Shown: positions 11,492 through 28,727 of the stretch, piece after piece
How positions within the stretch are numbered: position 1 is the first letter of the stretch
Layout of the letters: each line of letters starts with the position of its first letter
Source of the DNA: Patescibacteria group bacterium
GTDB lineage: Bacteria; Patescibacteriota; Microgenomatia; UBA8517
NCBI GenBank assembly: GCA_036381415.1
Contig: DASVCV010000003.1
Span: 4,162-68,161 of the forward strand
Reading direction: 5' to 3'
Length of the DNA: 64,000 bases
Program-made: the position numbers and the translations under genes
The notes under the pieces: model-generated
Database searches by the model: none
The model's input: only the letters and a program-made list of their open reading frames with translations
Told to the model about the DNA's origin: nothing

Positions 11492-11923
11492 GTGATTTAT
11501 ATGGCAGAAACACAACAAGTGATTCGGGAAAAACAATCTGGGGTAACTCCAAGTGGTAAACAAGTGGTATCTGAAAAAACTCAAGTTTCATCATCAAGTG
11601 CTGAAAAATACGAGACTGTAGGTGTTATTACTAATTTGGTTCTTTATGGTGCTGGTGTTATAGAAATCTTACTTTTGTTCCGATTTATTTTAAAAATATT
11701 AGGAGCTAATCCAGGAAGCATGTTTGTATCATTTATCTATACAGTATCTGGAATCTTTGAAATGCCTTTCCGAGGAATATTTCATTCAACAGCAACTCAA
11801 GGAATTGAAACATCGTCAATTCTTGAGCCATCTACTGTAGTAGCTTTGTTTGTATATTTAGTAATTGCAGTAGGGATAACACAACTAATAAGGTTGCTTA
11901 CAGCAACAAATAAAGGAGATTAA
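11492..11923 (+). CDS. membrane protein, possibly YggT-like
   Basis: Hydrophilic N-terminus followed by 2-3 TM segments (LLLFRFILKILGANPGS...). Confidence 0.3.
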   Translation: MIYMAETQQVIREKQSGVTPSGKQVVSEKTQVSSSSAEKYETVGVITNLVLYGAGVIEILLLFRFILKILGANPGSMFVSFIYTVSGIFEMPFRGIFHSTATQGIETSSILEPSTVVALFVYLVIAVGITQLIRLLTATNKGD

Positions 11924-12059
11924 TTTATTTTACTTACTAGGAGCATTTTAGAACGTGGTTCTTGCTGGGACGATTTTGGACTAACCCTTGTTCAATCAAT
12001 CCCCTATCTGTACCACAGTATCAGCCTCAAATAAGAATGCTTATTAGTAAAAGTAAATC

Positions 12060-12440
12060 TTATTTTTTGTTCGGCACTAACATATAAATGACGCTGCTAA
12101 TAAGTGACAGCACTATGCCAAAGACGAGCGCCCAAAGTATTCCATCTACCTTAAACCCTGGGACAATGGCTGCAACTAGCATTATCATAAGAGCATTTAT
12201 AACTAAACTAAAAAGCCCTAAAGATAGAATATTTATTGGAAGTGTCAAAAGCGAAACTAAAGGCTTTATAAAAGTATTAACAACAGCTAACAATACGGCT
12301 ACAATCAGTGCTGTAACAAATCCATCAACCTTTATACCTGGCAATATATAAGCACTAATAAAAACTGCAACCCCACTTAGTATTAAGTTAATTAAAATTT
12401 GCAAATTTATCACCCCCTCACGGATTTGATTGTTGAACAT
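12060..12440 (-). CDS. phage-holin-family (DUF360/YvlD-like) membrane protein
   Basis: 126 aa with 4 TM helices and the ILPGIKVDGF...GFKVDG pattern. Confidence 0.5.
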   Translation of the reverse strand: MFNNQIREGVINLQILINLILSGVAVFISAYILPGIKVDGFVTALIVAVLLAVVNTFIKPLVSLLTLPINILSLGLFSLVINALMIMLVAAIVPGFKVDGILWALVFGIVLSLISSVIYMLVPNKK

Positions 12441-15823: not shown

Positions 15824-15860
15824 CTTACAAATCCGAAGAAATCCGAAGAAAATGCTCCCC
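15824..15860. promoter_or_regulatory. 36-bp conserved element, copy B, upstream of the Nudix paralog
   Basis: cttacaaatccgaagaaatccgaagaaaatgctcccc, 44-80 nt upstream of the CDS start at 15780. Confidence 0.45.
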
Positions 15861-15949
15861 CTAAAGGACTTATTCATCAACAGAGTAATTGAATTTGATA
15901 TTGATTTAGAGGGACTAAAAATATTATTCAAACATCTAAATTTAGAGAT

Positions 15950-16714
15950 CTAAACAGTTGGCAAATGTAAATATTCTGTTCCAAATACTTGTTTAAAATC
16001 AAGATCGTTTAGTGCTAAGGGGAATAAATTAGGCTTGTTATAAAAATTGTGGAACGCTAGAGCTTTGCGCTTAAGAACCAGTTGAGTCTCGGTTAATTTA
16101 TAGCTATATTCAATTTCTTTGTTTAGCAAACCAAACTCCTTTGACCAATACTCTAGTTGAGGAATTAAATCTGGATTTAGTCTCTTTTTTGCGCCTGCTA
16201 ACCAATTAGACATCGCGTCTCTGTTAATAGTAATTTCTGATAGAAAGATTTGTTCTGGATATTTATTTTTGAGATGTCTTCCCACTAGATGAATTACTTT
16301 GTGGTCTTTGTTTCCATATCCCCCATTTTTGTCGTAGGACACAAGTGAAATTGGCAGTTTGATATTATTCTTTCCAAGCGCTTCAAGAAGTTCATTACCT
16401 ACATCTTCTATTTTTTGGTTCATAAGAGGAAAAACGTTTGTCCCCTGATACTTTGGCTCACTATATTTTAAGAAAATAACCGAACTTATTCCTAATATTG
16501 AACAAGCCTCGATTGTTTGTTGTTGACGTATAATTGTTTTTTCTTCTCCCTTAACTGAAGCTGCTGCCCCATATATGGCTACACATTTTCTTTTTTTTCT
16601 GGAAAGCTCATTTAATAAACCAGCAGATAAAAAAGATTCATCGTCGCAGTGAGCATGAAAGAATACGACAGGACGATTCTTTGGAAAAATTTCATCTATT
16701 TTTGTATTACTCAT
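15950..16714 (-). CDS. PIG-L/LmbE-family N-acetylglucosaminyl deacetylase
   Basis: VVFFHAHCDDESF (the HxDD zinc-binding motif of the LmbE/MshB/BshB family). The start overlaps the GT4 stop. Confidence 0.8.
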   Translation of the reverse strand: MSNTKIDEIFPKNRPVVFFHAHCDDESFLSAGLLNELSRKKRKCVAIYGAAASVKGEEKTIIRQQQTIEACSILGISSVIFLKYSEPKYQGTNVFPLMNQKIEDVGNELLEALGKNNIKLPISLVSYDKNGGYGNKDHKVIHLVGRHLKNKYPEQIFLSEITINRDAMSNWLAGAKKRLNPDLIPQLEYWSKEFGLLNKEIEYSYKLTETQLVLKRKALAFHNFYNKPNLFPLALNDLDFKQVFGTEYLHLPTV

Positions 16715-17891
16715 TTTTACTTAGATTTTCAAACAATTTAGTATCTAATCTAGATACTTCTTTTACAGATTTAAATGATTTAATAAAGTTAAGAGCTTGG
16801 GTAGAGAGGATATTCCTTTCTTTTAGAGATTCTACTGCTAGATTTGCGAATTTCTGGAAGTTTAATAGCTTAACTTTTTTAACCGCATTTGTAGCTGAAT
16901 AATTAAGTTTGGAAAAAGGAACACTCCATGTAATGACAGGTAATCCAAGGGCCAATGCTTCATTCACTACAGTTGGATAATTGTCATAATGAGAGGGATA
17001 CAGGAAAACACCACAGGAAGGCAGTATAGAATTTTTAGTTGAATCATCAGCCCACCCTTCATAATCTGCCTCAAAGTGTTTACTTTTATTTGAAACAAGC
17101 TTAGCTAAGGCTTGTTTACTAAAAGAATCGTCTGCCCTACCTAAAATAACTATTTTTACTTTTCTTCCAATCTTTATAGATATTCTTTTCAAAATATCCT
17201 CTAAATATTCCACACCTTTACCTTTTTCCATTCTAGCCATATAGGCAAAGTCATATTTTAAGTTGCTACTGATTTTGTAAGATTTATCCGCCTCAACTAC
17301 AGATGAAGCAGGCAAAACTAAAATTGGTAAATTTTTGAAATAAGTATTGAAGTAAAAAGCAACTGTTTTGTTGTTTGCTATTATTCTTACATTTTTAAAC
17401 ACTTCTTCAACTTCTTGATAGTGATTTAAAAGATAGTCTTTACGGTAAGTTGATATTCCTGAATTTGCATATTTTTCAACATCTTTTTTGAAATCTCCGC
17501 TAGGATTAGTAGGTGAAACCAAAAATGGCATAGCGTGCACTACTGTTGCGAAAGGTACTTTTCCCTTTAGGTTTTTGCCTAATTCTCTCATTAAGTCCCA
17601 TATTTCCATCTGCAGTATTACTGCGTCGGGCTTAAATTGGGTAATAAAGCTATTTATGTTTTCAACTACCTTACTCTGATCTTTAACTTCCCAACCATTA
17701 AATTCAACTGGATAATGAAAAAAGGTAATATTTTCGTAATTCTTCTTTGTGTTTTCATCATCAGGATTTTTGCCTAAACATACAATACTAATTTCATTTA
17801 ATTGAGAGAGGTATTTTAATTCTCTTGATAAACGAGCTAGGTGGCCTGCATTAGAAGATAAAGTTGAAAACGTAAGAAACATCAATCTCAT
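16707..17891 (-). CDS. glycosyltransferase family 4 (GT-B)
   Basis: 394 aa. C-terminal GT1/GT4 pattern (E...E motif region, DNYPTVVNEALALGLPVI). Confidence 0.75.
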   Translation of the reverse strand: MRLMFLTFSTLSSNAGHLARLSRELKYLSQLNEISIVCLGKNPDDENTKKNYENITFFHYPVEFNGWEVKDQSKVVENINSFITQFKPDAVILQMEIWDLMRELGKNLKGKVPFATVVHAMPFLVSPTNPSGDFKKDVEKYANSGISTYRKDYLLNHYQEVEEVFKNVRIIANNKTVAFYFNTYFKNLPILVLPASSVVEADKSYKISSNLKYDFAYMARMEKGKGVEYLEDILKRISIKIGRKVKIVILGRADDSFSKQALAKLVSNKSKHFEADYEGWADDSTKNSILPSCGVFLYPSHYDNYPTVVNEALALGLPVITWSVPFSKLNYSATNAVKKVKLLNFQKFANLAVESLKERNILSTQALNFIKSFKSVKEVSRLDTKLFENLSKNE

Positions 17892-18544
17892 AGCTGAGAC
17901 TTATTATTTTCATTAAAAATATAGATGGTTCCTACTTTTTCCTCCATTTTTCCTTCAGAATCCAAAATCATACCTGAATCTTCAGGTAGGGCTAGAACTT
18001 CAGATTTTGTCTTTTTAATTGTTTTATATACGTTTTTGTCGGCCTCTTCCTTGTAGTGACAAATTACAGACTTACCACCAAGCAGATTAAGTCCTTCGTA
18101 ATATGAATAGTTGCTATCATTTTCCTCTTCAACTGTTCTTATATCTTTGCCCAATATTATTGCTCCTGCACTTCCTCCATATACAATTCCACCATTTTTG
18201 ATAAATGTTTTGATTTTTTCATCCAATCCACTTTTTTTAATGTAATTTAGAAGTTTATAAGTGTTTCCACCACCCATATATATGGAATCATATAGCTTAA
18301 GATCTGGGATTTCGTCATCTTCCAAAAGCATTGTAAAATCTATATCTTTTTGGTTTGAGTGCTTTACAATAACTGTAGAAAACCAATCGTAGCTAGCTTC
18401 AAATCCAGTTTTGGTTCTGTTTAGTGCTATTGGAATATAGAGTATTTTTGAGTTGTTTTTAAGTAGAGAGAAATATTTTTTATCAATTCCAACACTAATA
18501 TCTATGTCTCCTCCACCTCCTAGGATAATTTTTCCCTTCTTCAT
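17888..18544 (-). CDS. peptidase S51 (dipeptidase E / cyanophycinase-like) family protein
   Basis: YMGGGNTYKLL...IVYGGSAGAIILG places the S51 catalytic Ser in GGSAG context. Overlaps neighbours on both sides. Confidence 0.6.
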   Translation of the reverse strand: MKKGKIILGGGGDIDISVGIDKKYFSLLKNNSKILYIPIALNRTKTGFEASYDWFSTVIVKHSNQKDIDFTMLLEDDEIPDLKLYDSIYMGGGNTYKLLNYIKKSGLDEKIKTFIKNGGIVYGGSAGAIILGKDIRTVEEENDSNYSYYEGLNLLGGKSVICHYKEEADKNVYKTIKKTKSEVLALPEDSGMILDSEGKMEEKVGTIYIFNENNKSQL

Positions 18545-19704
18545 GCTATTTTTTTAACTATCTCATCTATCTTATCTTTTGGCAACGAAAAACCAACTTG
18601 TTTTAAAAAGTCTTGAGTTGGCTGATTTATATCAACATAAATTTCGGTTGTTCCCTCTCTACCCAAGGTCTCTAAAAACAAACCATTATAATTCCTATCA
18701 TTTTCTAAAGATACAACCTTTAGCACCTCTTCTTTACTTACGGTCGGCTTATATCCCCATTTTTTCCAGAACTCGTAAGATGTATCTACTAATTCTGCTA
18801 CATTAGTATTTGTCCCTATGCTTCTTTGAACAAACCGTTTTGAAAGTTGTCTTAATCTATATCCGTGATCGTGAGAGGAAGGTTTTGTTCCTTCACCTGC
18901 TATTAAGACCATTGTTCTAATGGGGTCTATTATGGAAGCAATTTTATCTGCATCTGCTTGATCGTATAGTTCGTCAAATTCAGTAAAATAATGTTTAGTG
19001 GCGTTGATTGCCCAATTTAGCCTTTCTATTCCAAAACCTATATCAACAATTGATATTTTTTTGTCTTCTGTAACAGGATAATCATGAATATACACACACT
19101 CGCCTAATTCAATTCCGCCTGCATATATTGTAAATTGTGTCTTTGTGAACTTTCTACTACCCCATCTGTCGGGCACATTTTCTACTTGGAATCTTAAACT
19201 GCTTGCACTTACACCCAAACTTGTAATAAGTTTTATAAATTGATTAGACAGTTTTATAAAGTCATCGGGTTTTGCATCTACTGATTCTACTGAAAAATTG
19301 ATGAAAGATGATGAAGTTCCTTCTTTTATTTTATCCATAAACTGGCTCCTTATAACTGGCTGACTTACAACGAATGCTTCTCGTTTTAAATCACTACCTG
19401 TTCTTAGTACTGTTTCTATATGCTGAACTCCTGCTGAAGTAAAAAATGTCGTATCGCCTTTGGGCCTACAAACGGCATCAGGCTCTATTGACTTAACTCC
19501 ATCAAAATATTGGAATATATCTTCTGGTTTTTCCAATGGTTTTCTTTCGCTTGTTACTTGGGGTTTTTCATAATGAGTTGAGGGTGATAGCCTTAGAAAA
19601 TCTTGCCTTTCTTCATCTGCGACTAATCCTAAGTTTTGTGCGATAAAATCCTTGTTTAATTCAGTTTCTTGTGGGTATTTATTTTTAACCCTATCCATGT
19701 TCAT
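18541..19704 (-). CDS. stand-alone alanyl-tRNA-synthetase catalytic-core paralog (class II aaRS-like ligase)
   Basis: FFTSAGVQHIE matches AlaRS LLFTNAGMNQFK, VLRTGSDL matches CVRAGGKHNDL, and VDIGFGIERL matches VDTGMGLERI. It is only 387 aa, with no editing or C-Ala domains. Confidence 0.55.
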   Translation of the reverse strand: MNMDRVKNKYPQETELNKDFIAQNLGLVADEERQDFLRLSPSTHYEKPQVTSERKPLEKPEDIFQYFDGVKSIEPDAVCRPKGDTTFFTSAGVQHIETVLRTGSDLKREAFVVSQPVIRSQFMDKIKEGTSSSFINFSVESVDAKPDDFIKLSNQFIKLITSLGVSASSLRFQVENVPDRWGSRKFTKTQFTIYAGGIELGECVYIHDYPVTEDKKISIVDIGFGIERLNWAINATKHYFTEFDELYDQADADKIASIIDPIRTMVLIAGEGTKPSSHDHGYRLRQLSKRFVQRSIGTNTNVAELVDTSYEFWKKWGYKPTVSKEEVLKVVSLENDRNYNGLFLETLGREGTTEIYVDINQPTQDFLKQVGFSLPKDKIDEIVKKIA

Positions 19705-19707
19705 TAT

Positions 19708-20931
19708 TTAATAAAGTTGAATTTTTTCTTGTAACAGCAATTTTGTAATTTCAGGAATAGATTTAACTTCCTTTTCAACTAGTTTTTTAACGCCATCTTT
19801 GTCTTTGAAATCTTCTGGAAGTGTTATAAATATTGCCCAAGGATCAAGTAAGTCTCTACCACTTTGGCTAATTAAGGCAACTTCGTTAGGAACTTTAAAT
19901 TCTTCATATATTTTTTTACTTATTTCATTAGCAGTCACATAATAAACTTTTCCAATATGATAAACAGGGTTTTTACCACATGCTCCTTCCATGCTCATTG
20001 GTCTAGTTGGTGAAATAACTCCATTTATTCTATTTCCTCTACCAACCAATCCTTCATCTCCACTTTCAATGGAAGAACCTATTGCCGTAAGGTAGAGCTC
20101 CATTGTGTTGAAATTGTCTCTGGTGTTGAAGTTAAGTTCTAAATCTTTTATTCCTAAATCTTTGGAAATTTTAAATATTACTTTCCTTGCCTTTTCCATA
20201 TTAGTTTTATATTCACCAGCAGATTTAACATGGTCTGCTATTTGAGGGATGCACATGGTAATTCCAAACTGGTCATGGTTTCTGTAACCCATTATTTTTA
20301 TGTCTGAACCAATCCAGGGATTTTCCTTTTTAAATTCTTCAGAATTTAAGGTGTTTTCAATTTTTAGTACTAGCTGCTCTAAGATTGTATGTGGTGCATA
20401 GCCTACCCCAAGAGATGTGTCATTTGAAACTAATTTCTTGGTTTCAGGTAAATCTTGTAGTGTTCTAGGTTCAAACCAATGCTTTCTTGGAGCATTTGTA
20501 GATTCAAATTCTTCTGTTTTTCCTGGACTACTTTGGCTACTTAAATTGTAATGAAACTCTAAATCCTTGTCTGGATTTATCATTGGAAATCTAGATTTAA
20601 GAAACTCTTTTGCCCAAGAAATTAACATTTCTTTAACAGGTATTTCTTCATCCCCAAACTTGGTTGATGCACGACCATTTAGTAAAACTCTAATTGGCTT
20701 AATCAGATAACCTTTACCAAACGTTACAAAAGAAGCTCCACCTAGAAGTCCCACTTTGTCAAAATTGTGATGTAAAACTGCTCCAAATTTTTCAAGGGTA
20801 TAGTTAGAGTATTTGACAGATAAAACCTCTGCTAATGCATCTGATAGGGTGTCTGGATGTCCAATCCCCTTTCTTTCAACAAACTCATAATCTGGGCTGT
20901 CTTTAGGCTTTTTAGTAATATAGATATTCAT
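19708..20931 (-). CDS. archaeal-type S-adenosylmethionine synthetase
   Basis: MNIYITKK...[18 protein letters not shown] is the N-terminal signature of archaeal-type MAT. 407 aa. Confidence 0.85.
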
Positions 20932-21104
20932 AGGAGCTCAATTATAGCAGTACTCATCTGTAAAACCCAAATAATAGGGTCATTTTAAAGTAGATCTAGC
21001 TTTAAAGAACCGTAATCTCTTATTCTCCTCTGGAATTAAGGATGAGTTTGTGATATTATCTTTACCCAAAGGGTGAAGAAAAACTTGATTCCAATTACTA
21101 AACA

Positions 21105-21422
21105 ATGTATATTGAATTTGTTAACAGTAAAATTCGAAAGGTGTGTGAAAAGCGTTCAATTGCCATTAAAAAATTAGGTTTGAGAAATGCAGACTTGGTG
21201 GTTCAAAGAATAATGGAAATGGAAGCGGCAGCAAGTTTACAAGATTTAAGGATTTTACCAGGCCCAAGATGTCATCCTTTGAGCGGAGATAGAAAGGGAC
21301 AATATGCTGTTGACCTTGTTCATCCCAAAAGATTAGTTTTTTTGCCAGTAACTAAACTAAACGAAATTGCAGAAAGTTTGATTACAGAAATAATGGTTAT
21401 CGAAATAGTAGATTATCATTAA
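21105..21422 (+). CDS. higB: HigB-like (plasmid-maintenance killer, RelE superfamily) toxin
   Basis: 105 aa. The pattern ...NADLVVQRI...LQDLRILPGPRCHPLSGDRKGQYAVDL is typical of the HigB killer family. It lies immediately upstream of HigA. Confidence 0.7.
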   Translation: MYIEFVNSKIRKVCEKRSIAIKKLGLRNADLVVQRIMEMEAAASLQDLRILPGPRCHPLSGDRKGQYAVDLVHPKRLVFLPVTKLNEIAESLITEIMVIEIVDYH

Positions 21423-21424
21423 CT

Positions 21425-22510
21425 ATGATTAAGCAAAAAATAAATAATTACACACCAGATTTTATTGTTCACCCAGGTGTCACTTTGTCTGAAACGCTGG
21501 GTGCTATTGGTATGAGTCAAACCGAATTGTCCAAAAGAATTTCCCGACCAGAAACGGCAATTAGTGAAATTATAAACGGTTCCAAATCACTTACTCCCGA
21601 GACAGCAATCCAATTAGAAAGAGCTCTGGGCATCCCAGCTTCATTTTGGAATAATCTTGAGAAGAATTATCAGGAACTTAAAGCTAAATCTGAGTCTAAA
21701 AAAGCTTTACTTAAACAATCCGACCTAGCTGCAAATTATCCTTATGCTGAAATGGCAAAAAATGGCTGGGTGCAACAGACCAACAGTCTAGAAGAAAAAA
21801 TTGAAAATTTGTTGTCCTTCTTTGCAGTGGATAAATTATCTGTAATACCTGAAGTCATGCCTACTGCTTTTAGACAGCATAATGGGCGTTCTATATCCCA
21901 CTACTCTATACAAGCATGGCTGAGGAAGGGACTTATAGACAGTCAAATGGTAGATACAAAACCGTTTAATAAACAAAAATTAAACAATTTACTTGACGAG
22001 TTTAGAACGCTTTCAGTTGAAACCCCCAATATTATAGTGGACAAATTAACAAGATCCCTTGCAGAGTGCGGGATTGCTCTTGTATTCACAAAGGATTTAC
22101 CAAACACTTATGTCTGTGGAGCTTCTCGTTGGATAACACCTAACAAGGCAATCCTACAACTTTCATTAAGAGGACTTTATGCAGATATAATGTGGTTTAC
22201 TTTTTATCATGAATTAGGACACTTGTTGTTGCATAGCAAAAAGAAATATTTTGTAGATTTAAATCACACGACAAATAACACTGAGGAGGAAAAAGAAGCA
22301 GACAATTTTGCTTCGGAACACATTATCCCTGAACAAAAATTGTCTGAATTTATTTCAAAGAATGAAATTAGCGTCACATCAATTACAAATTTTGCTAACG
22401 AATTAGGTATCCATCCAGGAATTATTGTAGGTAGGCTCCAACACAAAAAGAAAATAGAATACAAGGATTTTAATCACCTAAGAGCTAAATATTATTTTGT
22501 AAAATCATAA
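21425..22510 (+). CDS. higA: HigA-type HTH antitoxin fused to an ImmA/IrrE-family metallopeptidase domain
   Basis: N-terminal HigA HTH (GVTLSETLGAIGMSQTELSKRISRPETAISEIINGSKSLTPETAIQLERALGIPASFW). C-terminal HEXXH (FYHELGHLLLH) with a downstream acidic residue, as in ImmA/IrrE. Confidence 0.7.
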   Translation: MIKQKINNYTPDFIVHPGVTLSETLGAIGMSQTELSKRISRPETAISEIINGSKSLTPETAIQLERALGIPASFWNNLEKNYQELKAKSESKKALLKQSDLAANYPYAEMAKNGWVQQTNSLEEKIENLLSFFAVDKLSVIPEVMPTAFRQHNGRSISHYSIQAWLRKGLIDSQMVDTKPFNKQKLNNLLDEFRTLSVETPNIIVDKLTRSLAECGIALVFTKDLPNTYVCGASRWITPNKAILQLSLRGLYADIMWFTFYHELGHLLLHSKKKYFVDLNHTTNNTEEEKEADNFASEHIIPEQKLSEFISKNEISVTSITNFANELGIHPGIIVGRLQHKKKIEYKDFNHLRAKYYFVKS

Positions 22511-22535
22511 AATTATTCTGAAGATGTAATGAATT

Positions 22536-23519
22536 ATGATGACTGGAAAAGAAAAACTCTATTTTCTTCTTGATACTATTGATGATGCAAGGTCTGTATC
22601 ACCTTCTGGCCAACCCTTAATTATTGATCCTGCGAATGACCTAAACGACAGACTTAGAGGTGTTGAATTAGAACAACTATTCACAAAGCTAGAAAAAGAC
22701 GAACAAGTCTTGAAAATTTTGCAAATCCCGAGCGGAATAAAAACTATTAGCATAGTTGAAGATGCTGATCCTTACGATCAGCTTTATGAAAATGACGATG
22801 GGTGTTGGCACATAGAACTTTTGCCTGCTTTTGATGACTATTTTTTAAAAATTCAAAATGAGCTTGAATATCAAGAGTTTACAGGCAAAAAACCGAGTTT
22901 TGAAACAGACATCCAAAGATTGTATGAAAAAATTCAGAAAGTAGATGAGCAAATCAGCATAAGAAGAGAGGCATGGGCTAAAGCTCAATCTACGATAAGC
23001 GACAATTCTTATTATTCTGAAGCAACAAGGACTGGACACCTTGCAAAACTTGAGCAACAAGCACAAACGGATATTGGTAATTTCATTAAACAAAAGGAAA
23101 CATACTTAGTAGAACTTAATCTTAGAAAAACAGATGTTCCAAAAAGCTCCCAAGCAAAACCTTTCAACGAAGAAGATAAATCAAACTCGGACAAGGTGTA
23201 TGAAATCACGTATATCTCAAGAGATATACTGCTTAATAATACTTTTCATTTAGCTAAACCAGATTTTGATAGCGAAAATGAGGTAGTTTTTTCATTTCTG
23301 TTTAATAATCCAAATCAGACTTTTAGTCGAACTGAAATAGAGGTGGAGATCCGAAGGAAAATAGCTAAGTCGCTTCATAAAATTGTAGAGAATCTGGGAT
23401 TTGTAGGTGATCTGAAAAAAGTTTTTTTTAACGTAAGCAAGGATTCTATCTGTTTCAAGAATCCTGTAACTAGACCTGATTTAGACAAGCTAGGGGTTGT
23501 CCACATTAAACTCCCCTAG
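22536..23519 (+). CDS. hypothetical protein
   Basis: 327-aa acidic protein with no recognisable motifs. Confidence 0.4.
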   Translation: MMTGKEKLYFLLDTIDDARSVSPSGQPLIIDPANDLNDRLRGVELEQLFTKLEKDEQVLKILQIPSGIKTISIVEDADPYDQLYENDDGCWHIELLPAFDDYFLKIQNELEYQEFTGKKPSFETDIQRLYEKIQKVDEQISIRREAWAKAQSTISDNSYYSEATRTGHLAKLEQQAQTDIGNFIKQKETYLVELNLRKTDVPKSSQAKPFNEEDKSNSDKVYEITYISRDILLNNTFHLAKPDFDSENEVVFSFLFNNPNQTFSRTEIEVEIRRKIAKSLHKIVENLGFVGDLKKVFFNVSKDSICFKNPVTRPDLDKLGVVHIKLP

Positions 23520-23847
23520 CGGTTGATAGGCATACGCTCCTTTTTGTACCTAAGTTTCCCTACCACGACGACAAACTACCAAATCGTCCTTATTCTCCTT
23601 TTATGGAAACAAAAAAAGCGGAACAAACCCAAGAGGAAACAGACAGGCACAAAGATCGTTTGGCCAAATTTTTTAATCTTTTGATTGAAATTGACCAGAA
23701 GAACAAGAGGAAAGAGGTGAATAAAGATGTATAAGAAATCAAATTTTCAAAAGAAACTACAGGAATTACTAGCAAAAGAATACAAGCGAATGCTAAGCGA
23801 AAACATAAAAAAAGGTTTCAAGTTGGCTATAGAAAGGAAAAATAAAA

Positions 23848-24135
23848 ATGAGAATAAGTGAAATTCAGATTATTCCGATCAAACCGCAAAACGGCCTTGT
23901 TGCCTTTGTGAGCTTTGTTTTAGACAGTAACCTTTATCTTAGTTCAATTGGTGTAATCACAAGACCACAAGGTGGTTACAGACTTACCTACCCTACTAAA
24001 AGAGTGGGTGTAAAAGACTTAAATATTTTCTATCCGATAAATAAAACTTTTGCAGAAGAAATAGAAAAGGAGGTGTCAGCAAAGCTTGAAGAAGTAATGA
24101 ATAATTATGATAGATACAATAAAACTAGTGCTTGA
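23848..24135 (+). CDS. SpoVG-family protein
   Basis: MRISEIQIIPIKPQNGLVAFVSFVLDSNLYLSSIGVITRPQGGYRLTYPTKRV... matches the SpoVG fold pattern (MxITDVRI..., G.Y.IS.P). Confidence 0.55.
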   Translation: MRISEIQIIPIKPQNGLVAFVSFVLDSNLYLSSIGVITRPQGGYRLTYPTKRVGVKDLNIFYPINKTFAEEIEKEVSAKLEEVMNNYDRYNKTSA

Positions 24136-25243
24136 TAGCAGTATGTATACAATTTTAGGTATGAATTTTTTTGAAAAAGGTAAAACAAATATGAGTCGTG
24201 GTTATTCAACATTTGTTCAAAATCCTACACAGAGTGAGTTGAAACGAGGTATATATAGACCGAGATTAACTGAGACTCATAGATATAATTGTTCTGGCCG
24301 TTCAGGTAAGACTTTAACTATTGAACTTTCTCTTCCCAAACTTATGTATGGAAATAATTTTGATGAATTAAAAGATGAAGATTTTCCTGTCGTATTTGAA
24401 AAGCTAAGACAGGTGTTAAAAGATGTGTCTGTTCGTGTTTATGAAAAGAGTTTAGAAAATGCACCTGTTTCTGCGGCTCACTATTCAAAAAACATTCCTT
24501 TAACTGATGGTTTAACTCCTCACTTTCTTATAAGTAAAATTAAAGAAGCGAATATTAAGCTTTCTCTTGATATTAGCGAGACTAGTTACAGTAATGATGG
24601 CCACATCTACAAATGGCACAGCAATTCCTATGAAGTTACTTTTTATGACAAAATTCATGATTTAGGAAAAGCTAAGGTTAGTGACAAAAGAGCAATAGAA
24701 AGAGACAATGCAATTCAGCTTGGTCTATTTGATAACTTTAAAAATAGAAAAATGTTTGAGGTTTTGCGAATGGAGATACGTTTAAAAAGGCCAAAGATGC
24801 GTAAATTATTTAGCGAATTGGGTATAGAAAAAGAATTCACATTTAAGAAACTGTTTAGCTCTCAAATCTCACAAAAAGTATTGCTACATTACCTTAATGA
24901 GATTGAACAGCAACGACTCCCCCTTCTTGACTATTCAACTTCAGACAAAGCTTTGTTGGCTGATTTAGTTATCAATAATCCTTCACTAGGAATAAAAAGA
25001 ACCCTGCAATTATATGGGTTTAAACAAGCGTTAAATAACGTGAGTATTCGTGAATTAAGGACGATGTTTGGGAAATGCAGTTCAAATAGCTGGTATAGAT
25101 TGATGTCTGATGCTAATAAAGTTAAGCCTCTTCCCCATCCAAGTCCTTTTAAAGTTATTAGAGATAATTTAGAAAGATTTGAACCGCTAAACATTGTTGA
25201 CTTTCAAGATGACAAGATGTTAAATAATGATAAATATAACTGA
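24107..25243 (+). CDS. hypothetical protein, possibly a replication-initiation (Rep_trans/phage CRI-like) factor
   Basis: 378 aa. N-terminal MIDTIKLVLDS resembles the IDxL start of Rep_trans proteins. Embedded among recombinase and excisionase genes. Confidence 0.3.
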   Translation: MIDTIKLVLDSSMYTILGMNFFEKGKTNMSRGYSTFVQNPTQSELKRGIYRPRLTETHRYNCSGRSGKTLTIELSLPKLMYGNNFDELKDEDFPVVFEKLRQVLKDVSVRVYEKSLENAPVSAAHYSKNIPLTDGLTPHFLISKIKEANIKLSLDISETSYSNDGHIYKWHSNSYEVTFYDKIHDLGKAKVSDKRAIERDNAIQLGLFDNFKNRKMFEVLRMEIRLKRPKMRKLFSELGIEKEFTFKKLFSSQISQKVLLHYLNEIEQQRLPLLDYSTSDKALLADLVINNPSLGIKRTLQLYGFKQALNNVSIRELRTMFGKCSSNSWYRLMSDANKVKPLPHPSPFKVIRDNLERFEPLNIVDFQDDKMLNNDKYN

Positions 25244-25418
25244 TATGGCACAGGAGTATTACTACTCTATCGAGGAGGTAGCAAAAACGTTAAAAGTTGC
25301 CTACCTTACTGTTTATCGATGGGTACAAGCAAAAAAATTAGCAGCCTTCAAAGCAGGCAAGCAGTACAGGATTAGGAAAGAAGACTTAGATCTGTTCTTA
25401 AAAGGTTATGAAGAATAA
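25227..25418 (+). CDS. excisionase/MerR-like HTH DNA-binding protein
   Basis: 63 aa. YYSIEEVAKTLKVAYLTVYRWVQAKKLAAFKAGKQYRIRKEDLDLFL has the shape of excisionase-family HTH_17 proteins. Confidence 0.55.
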   Translation: MINITDMAQEYYYSIEEVAKTLKVAYLTVYRWVQAKKLAAFKAGKQYRIRKEDLDLFLKGYEE

Positions 25419-26223
25419 AGGTATGAATAACTCATTTAAAATTCCAATTGAACAAGAGGATTATGACTATTGTTCTCAATTAGTAAGAAAAGAAATCAGT
25501 AAAATAATTCAAACAGCTATTGAAAAAGGTGATAACAAAATATTTATTCATACAAATCTACGCAGAGGGCTACCATTAGAAAATATAAACAAAGTTGCAG
25601 GTCCTTTTGTGGAAGCATGGGCATTGGAAAAGTTTGAAAAAATAGCTGAAAATCCTTTAAACGAATATAACTTAGTTAATGTTGAACCTGGTGTGCGTTT
25701 GGCACCATACGATATTATTCTTCAGTTTAAGAAGAAAAAGAGTAATGCTTCAGAAGTAGCGACTGCAAATGTGGATGTGAAAGCTACCTCAGACGATATT
25801 CCAACCTCTGGCCGAAGTCCAAACATAACTTCCTTTGGCAGGATACGAACAGAATATATTAACGATCCAGATTACATTTTTATTATTTTGTCATTGAAAC
25901 ATAAAGTCTATGGTGAAAGAAATGACAAAACTGGGATGACAAATGGAATTATGGAAGTTACAACCTACTCAGTTTACGATTTAAAATATGTAGATGAAAA
26001 AGATATTAGTTATAATCCAGCTCTCGGAACAGGTCAATTGCAAATACGAGACATTCATTATGTGTCTGAGACAAAAAGAACTACTTGGGAATTTCTCCAA
26101 ATATTGGATAGGAAGTTTATACGCTCAAAAGGCCAATCTGCTTGGGACAAGTTGGCAAAAATACATGGTTGGTTAATCGGAACAGAACCAAAAGTAGAAG
26201 TTACCGCAGAAGAAGTTCTATGA
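25408..26223 (+). CDS. putative type II restriction endonuclease
   Basis: Stop overlaps the MTase start (ATGA). Possible PD-(D/E)xK elements (PYDIIL ... NVDVKAT). Confidence 0.35.
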   Translation: MKNKGMNNSFKIPIEQEDYDYCSQLVRKEISKIIQTAIEKGDNKIFIHTNLRRGLPLENINKVAGPFVEAWALEKFEKIAENPLNEYNLVNVEPGVRLAPYDIILQFKKKKSNASEVATANVDVKATSDDIPTSGRSPNITSFGRIRTEYINDPDYIFIILSLKHKVYGERNDKTGMTNGIMEVTTYSVYDLKYVDEKDISYNPALGTGQLQIRDIHYVSETKRTTWEFLQILDRKFIRSKGQSAWDKLAKIHGWLIGTEPKVEVTAEEVL

Positions 26224-27014
26224 AGACTAATTATTTCATTGTTGGTGATGCCATTGAAAAAATGCAAAGACTCCCGAACGAGTCTATTGATTTAGTGGCA
26301 ACTGATCCACCTTATAATCTAGGGAAGAATTACGGCAATAACATCGACTACAAGGAGTGGCATGATTACCAACTGTTTACAGAAAGATGGCTGTCTGAGG
26401 CTGTGAGAGTTTTGAAATCATCAGGTAGTATTTATGTGTTTATGGGGGTAAGGTTTATTTCTAAGCTATTTACTTTAATGGAAGAAAAAGGCTTATTATT
26501 CAATGGTTGGATCACCTGGCACTACACTCAAGGTATGGGTAGAACACTTGGATTTTCCCCACGACATGAAGATCTTTTGTATTTTACCAAATCATCTAAT
26601 TTTACTTTTAATTTAGATGATATAAGAGTTCCACAAAAATACTTCCGAGAAAGAAATAACATGAAGGGTGCAAACCCTGGTGACGTTTGGCTGTTTTCTC
26701 ATGTTCATTACTCAAATCCAGAAAGGCAACCTCACCCTACACAAAAACCCTTGGCTGTAATGGAAAGGATAATTAAAGCAAGTTCAAATAAAGGTGATCT
26801 CGTTTTAGATCCGTTTGTAGGAAGTGGAAGTACATGCGTTGCTGCAAATGCACTAGATCGAAAATGGATAGGAATTGATACTAATCCAGATTATATTAAA
26901 ATGTCTAAAAAAAGAATATCGGAAATTTATTCTCCTGACTCCTTTGACCCTCGTCAAAGCAGAACTCCCCGAGATCTTAAAAAAAATGTTAATCAGAAAG
27001 GTTTACTTTTTTGA
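26220..27014 (+). CDS. DNA methyltransferase, beta-class amino-MTase (N4-C or N6-A)
   Basis: Motif IV VATDPPYNL precedes motif I LDPFVGSGST. The ORF track started it at an upstream alternative codon (26142). Confidence 0.85.
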   Translation: MKTNYFIVGDAIEKMQRLPNESIDLVATDPPYNLGKNYGNNIDYKEWHDYQLFTERWLSEAVRVLKSSGSIYVFMGVRFISKLFTLMEEKGLLFNGWITWHYTQGMGRTLGFSPRHEDLLYFTKSSNFTFNLDDIRVPQKYFRERNNMKGANPGDVWLFSHVHYSNPERQPHPTQKPLAVMERIIKASSNKGDLVLDPFVGSGSTCVAANALDRKWIGIDTNPDYIKMSKKRISEIYSPDSFDPRQSRTPRDLKKNVNQKGLLF

Positions 27015-27016
27015 CA

Positions 27017-28480
27017 ATGAAAGCAATAATCCTAGCTAGAGTATCTACTGAAGAACAAAAAGAGGCTGGAAATTCTTTACCTGCTCAACAAGCTAGGCTA
27101 AGAGCCTACATAGATAGAAAGTCCGATTTTCAATTAGTAAAAGAGTTTATATTTGATGAGTCAGCATATCAAGATAAAGAAAGGAAAAAATTTCAGCAGG
27201 TTGTTGATTATATTAGCAACCAAAAAGAAACAATTGCAGTTTGTTGCGATAAAGTAGATAGATTAAGCAGAGATTTTTTACTTGGTTTGCCTGCCTTAGA
27301 AAAGCTTAGAAGAATTGGTAAGATTGAATTGCACTTTCCTTCTGATAACTTAGTTATTCATAAAGATTCTCCTGCAACTGATCTATTTCACTACAATATT
27401 GCTTTGAGTTTGGCTCAATATTTTTCAAACGCTATTAGCGATAACGTCAAAAGAGCAATTGAACAAAAGCTCCGCAATGGTGAGTGGCCAGGTAAAGCTC
27501 CTTATGGATATAAAAATATAAGTATAAGCGAAGATAAAAAGGATATTATAGTGGATGAATTTACTTCAAGAGTTGTAAAGAAAATGTATGAGTGGTATTC
27601 AACGGGTGCCTATTCCCTACTCATTATTAGAAAGAAACTTAAAGAAGATCATAACATAGATTTTTCAAAGGGTTATATTGATGCAATTCTTAAAAATCCT
27701 TTCTATTGTGGTTTAATGCGTTTCAAAGGCGACCTTTACCCTCATAAATATGAACCTTTAATTTCTAAAGAGCTGTTTGATAAGGTGCAACAAATAAAGG
27801 CTGGGTATAACAAGAAGCATCATAAGTTTGCAGGGCTTCCCTACGCATATAGGGGCTTAATTCGCTGTGCTGTGTGCGGTTGTATGATAACCCCTGAGAA
27901 GCATAAAGGTCATATTTACTATCACTGCACACAATACAAAGGTAAGCATAAGATGGAATGGCTTAGAGAAGAAGATATAACCGAACAGTTTGCACAGTTA
28001 TTTAAAAAGCTACAGATACCACAAGAAATATTGGAAGATATCACAAACTCGCTTAAAAGCGTTCATAAGGGAAAAATTGAATACAGAGAGGAAGAGTTTA
28101 AAGCATTAAATGCGGAAAAGAATAAATACGCGAAAAGAATTGAACACTCATACGAGGATAGACTTGATGGGCGTATTACTGTAAATGAATATGACAAATA
28201 TCACACTGAGTTTAGAAATAAGATAAACGAAATTGATAGTAAATTAGCAAACTTACAGAAAGCAGAAGATGACTATTATTTGAGCGCAAAATACCTTCTG
28301 GAATTGGCAAACAGAGCTTCTGATTTATTCAAAAGTTCTGAAATTGAGGAAAGACGCCAACTTTTGAAGCTTACACTTCAGAACCTTACCTTGGATGGTA
28401 AAAAAGTCCGATTCCAAGCTCAAAAACCCTTTGATACAATCTTAAATTTCGCAGATAGTCCTTCTTGGCTCCCCCGGTAG
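27017..28480 (+). CDS. large serine recombinase (resolvase/invertase N-domain plus recombinase and zinc-ribbon domains)
   Basis: KAIILARVSTEEQ (catalytic Ser), C-terminal CAVCGC...CTQYKG zinc ribbon and a coiled-coil tail. Its stop codon lies inside the tRNA-Asn 3' exon on the opposite strand. Confidence 0.85.
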   Translation: MKAIILARVSTEEQKEAGNSLPAQQARLRAYIDRKSDFQLVKEFIFDESAYQDKERKKFQQVVDYISNQKETIAVCCDKVDRLSRDFLLGLPALEKLRRIGKIELHFPSDNLVIHKDSPATDLFHYNIALSLAQYFSNAISDNVKRAIEQKLRNGEWPGKAPYGYKNISISEDKKDIIVDEFTSRVVKKMYEWYSTGAYSLLIIRKKLKEDHNIDFSKGYIDAILKNPFYCGLMRFKGDLYPHKYEPLISKELFDKVQQIKAGYNKKHHKFAGLPYAYRGLIRCAVCGCMITPEKHKGHIYYHCTQYKGKHKMEWLREEDITEQFAQLFKKLQIPQEILEDITNSLKSVHKGKIEYREEEFKALNAEKNKYAKRIEHSYEDRLDGRITVNEYDKYHTEFRNKINEIDSKLANLQKAEDDYYLSAKYLLELANRASDLFKSSEIEERRQLLKLTLQNLTLDGKKVRFQAQKPFDTILNFADSPSWLPR

Positions 28481-28727
28481 GATTCGAACCTACAACCTTA
28501 TTCTTACAGTACCCCTTCTGTTACCAAAAGGACTGGACTATCTCATCTCCCTTAATGGGAGTCGGGTATATAGTCTCTACACATTTACTCTATTTAAAAA
28601 TAGAGATTTAGCTCGGGATTATCCTTTTTACAGGATTTCCCCGAATTAGCCCGATTTTACATTCTGCATTACTACAGAACGCTGCCTAACTTGACAGGAA
28701 TCTGCTCTGCCGTTGAGCTACAGGGGA
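28469..28727 (-). tRNA. tRNA-Asn(GUU) gene interrupted by a group I intron
   Basis: The 5' exon 28694..28727 reads TCCCCTG-TA-GCTC-AACGGCA-GAGC-A-GATTC-CUGU and ends in U. The 3' exon 28469..28506 reads UAA-GAAUA-AGGUU-GUAGG-UUCGAAU-CCUAC-CGGGGGA-G and follows an intronic G. Spliced, the anticodon loop is CUGUUAA, the acceptor stem pairs with one G-U, and CCA is encoded at 28466..28468. Confidence 0.6.
28507..28693 (-). ncRNA. group I intron (Azoarcus tRNA-Ile intron-like, ~187 nt) in the anticodon loop of tRNA-Asn
   Basis: P, Q, R and S elements are present. AAUUCGGGGAAAUCC (P) pairs with AAUCCCGAGC (Q). GUGUAGAGACUAUAUACC (R) and GAGAUAGUCCAG (S) form the P7 GACUA/UAGUC pairing and closely resemble the Azoarcus GUGUAGAGACUAGACGG. 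There is a U-G pair at the 5' splice site (exon CUGU with intron GGCAG) and a terminal omega-G. Confidence 0.6.

Follow-up and report, generated by a model that had tools for sequence, protein, structure and literature searches.

A probable 12.6-kb integrated element at a tRNA-Asn gene of a CPR bacterium, with a large serine recombinase gene divided between its two ends

The present analysis has identified a mobile element of about 12.6 kb, extending from 15854 to 28475 at the 3' end of a tRNA-Asn gene, in the genome of a bacterium of the Patescibacteria (CPR) (the window is the whole stretch of 64,000 nucleotides that was analysed). The ends of the element are formed by an 8-bp direct repeat, GCTCCCCC, and the gene of its large serine recombinase (LSR) is divided between them: codons 1-486 end at the tRNA, and the last 30 codons (LKDLFINRVIEFDIDLEGLKILFKHLNLEI) are found in the same frame at 15861-15950, 12.6 kb away. 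The same architecture recurs in related elements, and a probably circular relative is among them. We consider it probable that 15854-28475 is a single integrated element, that its LSR uses an attP inside its own gene with the 3' end of a tRNA as attB, and that it belongs to a large, apparently undescribed family of CPR elements. We infer that the copy in the window is active.

The LSR in its integrated, C-terminally truncated form (27017..28480, + strand, 487 aa, ending in ...FADSPSWLPR*) is 100% identical to P0001 (487 aa) and matches the phrog_95 integrase family (E 7e-76). Its Resolvase, Recombinase and Zn-ribbon domains and the RVS catalytic motif are all intact. The detached 3' piece (15855..15953, + strand) consists of LP, LKDLFINRVIEFDIDLEGLKILFKHLNLEI and a stop codon and is read in the frame of W-L-P at the tRNA end; it was recognised by translation and by a tblastn match to the C-terminus of P0019, an uninterrupted relative of 514 aa. 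The C-terminal 48 residues of P0019 match the window twice in tblastn, residues 2-18 at 28424-28474 (E 1.4e-7) and residues 17-48 at 15855-15950 (E 1e-10), and the two matches overlap exactly on LP, which corresponds to the core CTCCCC. P0019 also has the ...FADS..W end of the window protein, and the two tails are 69% identical. Differences between tails are mostly located at the third codon position (e.g. 5/2/12 and 8/4/17 at positions 1/2/3), which points to selection on the tail, and this substitution pattern across the family implies that the rejoined gene is translated. The tail was modelled as two short helices with low confidence (pLDDT 43-70); our preferred guess is that it acts as a state-dependent switch of recombinase activity or direction. 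The splitting of the recombinase gene by integration had been missed in the earlier note.

The attL core (28468..28475, + strand) lies antisense to tRNA positions 67-74 and the attR core (15854..15861, + strand) is its direct repeat; in the window as well as in L001, L005, L059, L058, L011 and L024 the core is followed by a conserved right flank. By itself GCTCCCCC is not significant, with four occurrences on the + strand of the window. The crossover would fall at TC, i.e. 15856-15857 in attR and 28470-28471 in attL, the latter corresponding to tRNA positions 72 and 71. The reconstructed attP reads AGTCCTT-cttgGC-TC-CCCCta-AAGGACT, forming a perfect 7-bp inverted repeat around TC, and this dyad symmetry is kept in the same register in L005 and L059. 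The attP junction would carry AGTCCTTCTTGGCTCCCCCTAAAGGACT and the attB junction GAAGAAAATGCTCCCCCGGTAGGATTCG.

In the proposed mechanism, the LSR would recombine an attP within its own ORF, some 30 codons ahead of the stop, with an attB at the very 3' terminus of a tRNA gene (tRNA-Asn in the window), by exchange at the TC antisense to positions 71-72 within the 8-bp identity. The tRNA would remain intact and acquire the element-encoded CCA. With attP placed within the recombinase ORF, integration would split the gene: the 486-codon body would stay at the tRNA junction, ending in the tRNA-antisense WLPR*, and the last 30 codons would end up 12.6 kb off, at the opposite end. Excision between the cores would yield a circle on which the gene is restored to about 516 aa.

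The target is a tRNA-Asn(GUU) gene on the minus strand (28466..28727), comprising a 5' exon (28727-28694), a group I intron of 187 nt (28693-28507; Rfam RF00028, 89 bits) and a 3' exon with encoded CCA (28506-28466). The gene was missed by ARAGORN; the spliced sequence folds as tRNA-Asn. The earlier note had correctly described an intron-containing tRNA, with the final 12 nt of the recombinase gene, stop codon included, inside its 3' exon: the stop TAG occupies 28478-28480, and the two genes share 12 nt if counting ends at the discriminator base (28469) and 15 nt if it ends at the CCA. Its reading of this overlap as the footprint of an LSR-driven element integrated at the tRNA-Asn 3' end is also supported, and the position of attP within the recombinase ORF accounts for the overlap. 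The claim that the element rebuilds the tRNA hardly holds, as with a crossover at positions 71-72 it gives no more than the last few bases and the encoded CCA. That CCA sets tRNA-Asn apart in the window, where five of the six other tRNA genes are without it; the tRNA-Asn ortholog in L011, the closest relative, has neither intron nor encoded CCA, and the reconstructed attB also lacks CCA. The recombinase and the tRNA always adjoin, so that the tRNA could be regarded as part of the element and the overlap as mere compact gene packing. This explanation has next to no probability, however, as L011 carries tRNA-Asn at the same place relative to rpoD with no recombinase, the circular relative L060 is devoid of a tRNA and the family members are located at different tRNAs.

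At least seven independent related loci share one architecture, in which the tail and leftward cargo are followed by the 327-aa, SpoVG and 378-aa proteins, an excisionase-like HTH protein, variable defence cargo and the LSR against a tRNA. The core with an in-frame tail is present at the far end in L001/L016, L005/L014, L017, L023, L024/L026 and L059, and at a tandem junction in L058. The recombinase 3' end overlaps an antisense tRNA 3' end in 17 metagenome loci (L013-L037) and in the re-scanned L001 and L005, the target tRNAs of the family being Asn, Gln, Arg and Leu. In the window and in all 14 loci whose junction was read the frame is identical; the tRNA CCA end is covered by the codon TGG (W) in 12 and by GGG in L001 and L034, and the junction GAT/GAC-TCG-AAC encodes D-S-N. 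Around the constant core the cargo varies, including type I, II and III-like R-M systems, Mrr, GmrSD and toxin-antitoxin pairs. Neither a published description of this family nor a published natural LSR with attP inside its own gene was found in the literature searched.

The contig of P0019 (L060) has 9579 nt with an exact terminal overlap of 30 nt, and contains the same core genes. On the basis of its matching ends L060 is probably circular. GCTCCCCC sits within its recombinase ORF, flanked by sequences that match the integrated L001, at attL on one side (75%) and at attR on the other (91%). L060 looks like an excised form of a related element; a circular contig arising from a tandem array could in principle give the same picture.

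The composition of the element is uniform with its surroundings (tetranucleotide distance rank 5 of 57 windows; GC 0.343), and the discontinuity that the earlier note had suggested looking for was not present. Uniform composition and a gene order shared with relatives had been named there as signs against an element. Both were observed in part and mobility is not refuted by them; the gene order recurs because the whole family targets the same tRNA with different cargo. The uniform composition would also fit a fixed fossil, i.e. a once mobile element which is now vertically inherited with no excision, its recombinase being kept by chance or for another role. Part of the element also occurs in a relative (83% identity between the MetK orthologs), and the element encodes what may be the AdoMet synthetase of the genome; both observations point in the same direction. 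On the other side stand the three intact recombinase domains with their catalytic motif, the intact in-frame tail ORF, the perfect core repeats and dyad arms, the family tail substitutions implying translation of the rejoined gene and the existence of the circular relative. A fossil is thus an unlikely, though still considerable, alternative to the element being mobile.

The layout of the element is divergent, with a leftward five-gene metabolic cargo operon facing a rightward module. The operon, on the minus strand, encodes a PIG-L family de-N-acetylase (15950..16714; PF02585, E 6e-11) lying inside the att-bounded segment, a group 1 glycosyltransferase (16707..17891; PF00534, E 4e-13), a Peptidase_S51/glutamine-amidotransferase-like protein (17888..18544; PF03575, E 1e-22), a protein weakly matching the class II alanyl-tRNA-synthetase core (18541..19704; PF01411, E 6e-6, below the curated cut-off) and an archaeal-type S-adenosylmethionine synthetase (19708..20931; PF01941, E 6e-109), to which the L011 ortholog is 83% identical. 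These five genes, 15950-20931, bring the element to about 12.6 kb instead of the 7.4 kb noted earlier. The left boundary had been suggested at about 20.95 or 23.55 kb; the real left end, 15854-15861, is 5.2 kb outside the interval given in the earlier note. The direct repeat proposed for 20.9-24 kb was searched for, and no repeat of the tRNA 3' exon beyond chance was obtained there; the att repeat is of 8 bp and located at 15.85 kb.

Another possibility is that only about 21.0-28.5 kb is the active element, and that the core and tail at 15854 are the relic of an older element that has lost its recombination module and whose five cargo genes were domesticated (tandem accretion with the internal junction lost). 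L011, beside tRNA-Asn, has a diverged tail adjoining the same five leftward genes (68% DNA identity to the window; MetK 83% aa) and is without the HigB-to-recombinase module, hence it is not a clean empty site, and the five genes may be long-resident at a locus with a history of decay. Tandem arrays and decayed relics are also known in the family (L058, the two tails in L011 and the remnant ORFs P0241-P0243). However, 20932-21104 lacks a core, a tail and any significant repeat or dyad. The tail at 15855 is intact, retains its identity to the P0019 tail and forms the perfect 7-bp dyad with the P arm. Leftward cargo also directly follows the tail in L001, L005, L059 and L060. The tail of L011 diverges at about the DNA rate of its flanks, as would be expected for a decayed ortholog. 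A shorter active element is accordingly doubtful, and the single element bounded at 15854 is preferred.

All nine same-strand ORFs listed earlier at 21105-28480 are present. The rightward module (+ strand) begins with a HigB/RelE-like toxin (21105..21422; phrog_3066 toxin E 3.7e-11; PF05015 18.4 bits against a cut-off of 27) and a HigA-type HTH antitoxin fused to an M78 (IrrE-like) peptidase domain (21425..22510; TIGR02607 57 bits, cut-off 47.7; PD-Lambda-2_B E 6e-44). The 327-aa core protein (22536..23519), with no assigned function, has homologues at the same position in L001, L023, L030 and L060, the conservation among related elements covering the N-terminal 121 residues. It is followed by the SpoVG-like core protein (23848..24135; PF04026 34.7 bits, cut-off 29.6; same position in L001, L005, L056, L058, L059 and L060). 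A homologue of the 378-aa core protein (24107..25243) lies beside the recombinase in 13 of 14 scanned loci, the exception being the short contig L015, and none of its more than 1100 homologues has a Pfam domain. Searched with Foldseek, its AF2 model (pLDDT 74) matched unnamed viral proteins (E 1e-8, TM 0.53) as well as an Inoviridae protein, and hhalign against pT181 RepC was negative. The ORF proposed earlier as a possible Rep protein is real, and it is a candidate replication or mobilisation protein, the structural matches to unnamed viral proteins being the basis for a replication role. The excisionase-family HTH_17 protein (25227..25418; PF12728 E 1.5e-14; TIGR01764 57.8 bits, cut-off 28.8) is a candidate directionality factor or regulator. 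The type II R-M cargo comprises a restriction endonuclease (25408..26223; PADLOC REase_II E 1.3e-90), whose homologue in L017 is paired with the same methyltransferase, and an N6/N4 DNA methyltransferase (26142..27014; PF01555 213 bits; MTase_II E 2.7e-82), whose true start is probably downstream of 26142. The PHROG integrase match of the recombinase, the excisionase matches of the HTH protein and the weak viral structure matches of the 378-aa protein could indicate a prophage, phage satellite or conjugative element. This is highly improbable, as no capsid, terminase, portal, tail, lysis, relaxase or type IV secretion gene was found with PHROGs and Pfam, and the attP sequence and the 378-aa family are both absent from IMG/VR.

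In comparison to LSR elements and phages (phiC31, Bxb1, SPbeta SprA, TnpX, CcrAB), the element has the same domain set (resolvase, recombinase, zinc ribbon) and a long coiled coil. Its att sites are likewise short, with an imperfect dyad around a central dinucleotide, and long direct repeats are absent; a small accessory protein is again the candidate for a directionality factor. The element differs in having attP inside the recombinase ORF, so that integration removes the last 30 codons, in targeting the extreme 3' end of a tRNA instead of a protein-coding gene, and in its CPR hosts. In mycobacteriophages BPs and Brujita, which show integration-dependent immunity, attP lies in the 3' end of the phage repressor gene; a tyrosine integrase is used, and integration alters the repressor C-terminus, and hence its behaviour, by removing a degradation tag. 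The element resembles them in having attP in the 3' end of a gene whose product changes its C-terminus, whereas here it is the LSR gene that is split. The 'suicidal' integrases of SSV1-type archaeal elements also have attP in the integrase gene, which is split by tRNA integration and restored on excision (PMC7253208, PMC8371274). Those are tyrosine recombinases split in the gene body and inactivated, whereas here a serine recombinase loses a 30-residue tail and the known domains stay intact. Tycheposons of Prochlorococcus likewise integrate at tRNAs in a streamlined genome and carry cargo and replication genes; most use tyrosine recombinases, and a large serine recombinase is present in 27 of 937 (bioRxiv 10.1101/2020.12.28.424599). 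Their core genes are unrelated, and a split recombinase gene is not described in the part of the source consulted. Finally, the serine-recombinase integrative and mobilizable elements of Firmicutes (PMC5704250) use protein-coding or other target sites and have recognisable relaxases or Rep_trans proteins, whereas the 378-aa protein of the window matches no such family; they share with the present element the small size, a putative replication/relaxase protein and toxin-antitoxin or R-M cargo.

The element adjoining tRNA-Asn carries nine plus-strand ORFs between 21105 and 28480, which are present as a same-strand block in the manner described by the earlier note. The first of these codes for a HigB-like toxin, which scores weakly in Pfam (18.4 bits, below the cut-off of 27) and matches a PHROG toxin family with an E value of 3.7e-11. 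Profile searches further identified a HigA-type HTH antitoxin fused to an M78 peptidase domain (TIGR02607, 57 bits, above the NCBIfam cut-off of 47.7) and a SpoVG-like protein, and gave no match for a 327-aa and a 378-aa protein. The block also contains an excisionase-family HTH_17 protein of 63 aa (25227-25418), which is the only candidate directionality factor for excision, and a type II restriction enzyme (PADLOC REase_II, E 1.3e-90) adjoining its N6/N4 methyltransferase (MTase_II, E 2.7e-82) as in type II restriction-modification systems, the same pair being kept in the related locus L017. The last ORF encodes a recombinase with a resolvase catalytic domain (PF00239, E 1.8e-19, residues 5-159), whose N-terminus with the serine nucleophile is MKAIILARVSTEEQ, along with PF07508 (E 4.6e-12) and the PF13408 zinc ribbon (E 4.9e-7). 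In the AF2 model of P0019, a homologous recombinase of 514 aa, two long helices are found at 334-438, as is characteristic of the coiled coil of large serine recombinases. By its catalytic domain and its Recombinase and zinc-ribbon domains with the inserted coiled coil, the window enzyme is a large serine recombinase; an exact look-up of its own sequence returned no contig on record.

The overlap between the recombinase gene and the tRNA gene was also borne out, the stop codon (28478-28480) being 12 nt inside the tRNA when counted to the discriminator base and 15 nt when counted to the CCA. The tRNA gene is hidden from ARAGORN, which found no tRNA near 28.5 kb, because a group I intron interrupts it. 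This intron was detected by Rfam on the minus strand with 89 bits, and the exons on either side of it splice into a canonical tRNA-Asn(GUU) on that strand, with the 5' exon at 28727-28694, the 187-nt intron at 28693-28507 between anticodon positions 35 and 36, and the 3' exon including CCA at 28506-28466. That CPR tRNAs can contain group I introns is known from earlier work (PMC8172020). Introns in tRNA-Asn recur in other CPR loci adjoining related recombinases (L042, 1915-2147; L043, 588-820; L058, after 11485), where the recombinase ORF can run into the intron, P0029 and P0075 both ending in ...SVTKRLGLSH.... Just past the intron-bearing tRNA-Asn of L058 lies a minus-strand ORF with a 23S_rRNA_IVP domain (11844-12233), which may be intron-associated, and in L002 a GIY-YIG ORF (11559-11801) directly adjoins the tRNA-Asn.

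While the gene block and the overlap proposed in the earlier note are real, its extent for the element and its att prediction are wrong. A left boundary with an att repeat had been expected at 20.9-24 kb, possibly accompanied by a discontinuity in composition. Direct and inverted repeat searches over 20.5-29.1 kb, as well as targeted alignments of the tRNA 3' exon to the two intergenic regions it had named, gave chance-level matches only, and the composition of the window is uniform. The motif CTTATTCT(CCT) at 21019, 23588 and 28497 was considered as the att core and abandoned after the recombinase tail was found at 15854. It sits upstream of the rightward operons, in the two intergenic regions (21019-21029 and 23588-23599; 11 nt identical), in the tRNA anticodon stem region (28496-28505) and, as CTTATTC, in the P' arm (15869-15875), and its recurrence may be due to chance or to binding by a regulator or the recombinase.

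At plausible left ends of three relatives the tRNA terminus recurs as a short exact repeat, namely TGGCTCCCC just past a terminator hairpin in L024/L026, AACAGGGCTCC in the integrated Levybacteria element L001 and TGGCTCCCCC in L059, and the right flanks of these repeats are conserved across different elements. A scan of the window for GCTCCCCC together with this conserved right flank gave a match at 15854, which is intergenic and lies ahead of five minus-strand genes. The direct repeat GCTCCCCC is therefore present at 28468-28475 and again at 15854-15861, with the lost end of the recombinase gene following this second copy; the conserved flank codes for LPLKDLFINRVIEFDIDLEGLKILFKHLNLEI and a stop codon at 15855-15953, in frame with the W-L-P of the recombinase. 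In P0019 the gene is uninterrupted and its C-terminus reads ...FADSQTWLPLKDLFINREIEFDYSLEDIKILYSNLRLSI. When the last 48 residues of P0019 were used as a tblastn query against the window, residues 2-18 matched 28424-28474 (E 1.4e-7) and residues 17-48 matched 15855-15950 (E 1e-10), the two matches sharing the LP encoded by the core. Since the C-terminus of P0019 matches both ends and the matches overlap on the core, the recombinase gene has been split by integration and the element extends from 15854 to 28475. The integrated form of the enzyme has 487 aa, and the rejoined gene would encode 516 aa. Both its boundaries and the split gene are well supported, and it has the recombinase at the tRNA 3' end and the far-boundary direct repeat of the tRNA end that define tRNA-gene integrative elements. 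At 15852-15854 an ATG, made of the old tRNA trailer and the first core base, directly precedes the tail in frame and makes possible a 33-codon mini-ORF (15852-15953) in the integrated state; it may be a coincidence, since other loci carry GTG, TTG, TGG, CAG or GGG at this place.

From these ends attP was reconstructed as GATAGTCCTTCTTGGCTCCCCCTAAAGGACTTATTC and attB as CCGAAGAAAATGCTCCCCCGGTAGGATTCGAACC. The arms of attP, read outward from the TC at core positions 3-4, form a perfect 7-bp inverted repeat (AGTCCTT...AAGGACT), and the same dyad register about TC is found in the related elements L005 and L059 (TCAAC/GTTGA in the latter); attB shows little symmetry. The probable crossover dinucleotide is this TC, corresponding to tRNA positions 72 and 71. 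The encoded CCA of the tRNA-Asn has no counterpart in five of the six other tRNA genes of the window or in the tRNA-Asn of the relative L011. As the CCA now present is the Trp codon of the element and the reconstructed attB (...gaagaaaatGCTCCCCCggtaggattcgaacc...) has no encoded CCA, replacement by the element is confined to a few bases at the end of the tRNA gene.

A relative probably shows the free form. Contig L060, which encodes P0019, is 9579 nt long and is read as a circular assembly because its first and last 30 nt are identical. Besides the full-length recombinase, whose ORF contains GCTCCCCC, it holds homologues of the 327-aa and 378-aa proteins, SpoVG, HTH_17, a ResIII helicase-nuclease, a methyltransferase and three leftward genes, and it lacks a tRNA. 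The recombinase side of this circle matches the attL side of L001 as far as the core, and the sequence past the core aligns at 91% with the attR side of L001. This relative thus provides a probable excised circle, and the window copy is presumed to be active.

The five minus-strand genes (15950-20931) code for a PIG-L deacetylase, a GT1 glycosyltransferase, an S51/GATase-like protein, an AlaRS-core-like protein and an archaeal-type AdoMet synthetase, and they hold the slot of the leftward cargo, often TA pairs, in L001, L005, L059 and L060. The combination of PIG-L deacetylase, GT1 glycosyltransferase and aminoacyl-tRNA-synthetase-like ligase recalls mycothiol or bacillithiol-type pathways. 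The cumulative GC skew has its minimum at ~21 kb, where leftward genes give way to rightward genes inside the element; owing to this coincidence it reflects gene orientation and is no evidence for a replication origin.

Relative L011 bears on the membership of these five genes in the element. Its MetK ortholog is 83% identical to that of the window, and it is syntenic with window 15965-20949 and again at the tRNA and rpoD, with 1.1 kb in place of 7.5 kb and without the window's 21.0-28.4 kb. Reading L011 as a clean empty site, which would bracket the insertion to 20950-28466, was rejected because the same five genes lie there beside a diverged tail (15145, minus strand), with no recombinase module; a recombinase remnant was sought downstream of the L011 tRNA and nothing significant was found. 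The five genes could alternatively be an older resident whose internal junction with the module has been lost in the window, but the interval 20932-21104 offers no support for it. On the most parsimonious view, L011 harbours a decayed relative of the window element. Two tail relics are present in L011, 3.3 kb apart (15145 and 18476, minus strand), and an N-terminal fragment of the 327-aa gene (18849-19199) lies beside the outer one, so that this flank of tRNA-Asn looks like a graveyard of decayed elements. Within the MAG of the window, a 137-kb contig has a second, 120-aa C-terminal recombinase fragment (P0246, VF185_00695; ...FADSPSWLHLMDEV...), which suggests another decayed copy elsewhere in the genome.

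The element belongs to a large family. Protein searching gave more than 3700 recombinase homologues which, where the source is named, come from Patescibacteria, Levybacteria or Pacebacteria. The recombinase 3' end overlaps an antisense tRNA 3' end in L001, in L005 and in 17 metagenome loci with a tRNA found beside it, the partner being mostly Asn and also Gln(UUG, CUG), Arg(UCG) or Leu(CAA). The junction frame is identical in the 14 loci read out and in the window: one codon lies over the CCA end of the tRNA (TGG for Trp in 12, GGG in L001 and L034), and GAT/GAC-TCG-AAC is read as Asp-Ser-Asn. The set of core genes is constant and consists of the recombinase, the 378-aa protein and, in most loci, HTH_17, with the 327-aa protein and SpoVG often present too; of the 14 related recombinases scanned, 13 have a homologue of the 378-aa protein beside them, and the one without it is on a short contig. 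The cargo between HTH_17 and the recombinase varies (type I, II or III-like restriction-modification, Mrr, GmrSD). The far ends of L005/L014, L017 and L023 have tails as well; L023 targets tRNA-Gln and has its core altered accordingly to GCTGC. Differences between tails concentrate at third codon positions, so that translation of the rejoined gene and selection on it are evident. L058 is a tandem array in which the reading frame of one recombinase continues past the junction into the tail of its neighbour. The rejoined C-terminus used as a protein query gave short remnant ORFs only.

In four related loci the sequence following the recombinase is not an intact tRNA (L022 ~3771, L025 ~4716, L015 ~2812 and L030 ~11465). 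In L022 and L025 tRNA-like sequence extends as far as the D-stem, where it stops. L015 and L030 have different tails after TGGCTC(CG), both with GATGTTAG 12 nt past TGGCTC, which did not generalise as a motif following the core. Such ends may represent further kinds of tail, junctions of tandem copies or tRNAs that have been disrupted. Just outside its attR, L001 has 21 nt (919-939) left over from the 3' end of the tRNA.

With its attachment site within the recombinase gene, the element encodes a C-terminus for this enzyme that differs between the free and the integrated state, and this difference is a possible means of direction control. The detachable 30-residue tail, for which two short helices are predicted at low confidence, might tentatively be regarded as a built-in state sensor, with the direction of recombination set by the topology of the recombinase's own gene, though we consider this rather unlikely. 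Full-length, integration-competent recombinase would then be encoded by the excised circle only, and the integrated copy would give a truncated enzyme with a tRNA-antisense end and a different activity, direction or stability. If true, serine integrases would have a principle of control new to them, extending across a large tRNA-targeting CPR family.

To our knowledge, little is known of mobile DNA in CPR/Patescibacteria, and our study defines a family of mobile elements widespread among them, through which very small genomes acquire defence systems and, in the present case, a metabolic operon of five genes. Their serine integrases aim at tRNA 3' ends as a rule, a niche classically held by tyrosine integrases. 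Long tRNA repeats are useless for finding the boundaries of these elements, for which the split recombinase tail serves as the marker. The attB and attP of these enzymes can be read straight from genomes and may serve genome engineering.

Other identities were also considered. No capsid, terminase, portal, tail or lysis genes of a prophage were found with PHROGs and Pfam, IMG/VR gave nothing related to the recombinase, the attP sequence or the 378-aa profile, and no ORF in 15950-28480 has a Pfam match to relaxase, coupling or type IV secretion proteins of conjugative elements. The 378-aa protein, noted earlier as a possible Rep, belongs to a family of more than 1100 members with no Pfam domain. 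It has no sequence match in Pfam, PHROG, NCBIfam or PDB, nothing below E 0.1 in Foldseek against PDB and a probability of 0.2 against pT181 RepC in hhalign; its only structural matches are unnamed viral BFVD proteins (E 1e-8, TM 0.53) and one Inoviridae protein. A role as rolling-circle initiator (Rep_trans or phiX A-like) found no support, every named-family test having failed.

In the literature searched, no description of these CPR elements and no natural serine integrase with an intragenic attP was found. Among known systems, the tycheposons include a small share of tRNA-targeting elements that have a large serine recombinase (bioRxiv 10.1101/2020.12.28.424599). The SSV-type archaeal integrases have the split-gene principle alone in common with the window element (PMC7253208); the split integrase of the SSV type has the tyrosine recombinase fold, whereas the window enzyme is a serine recombinase.
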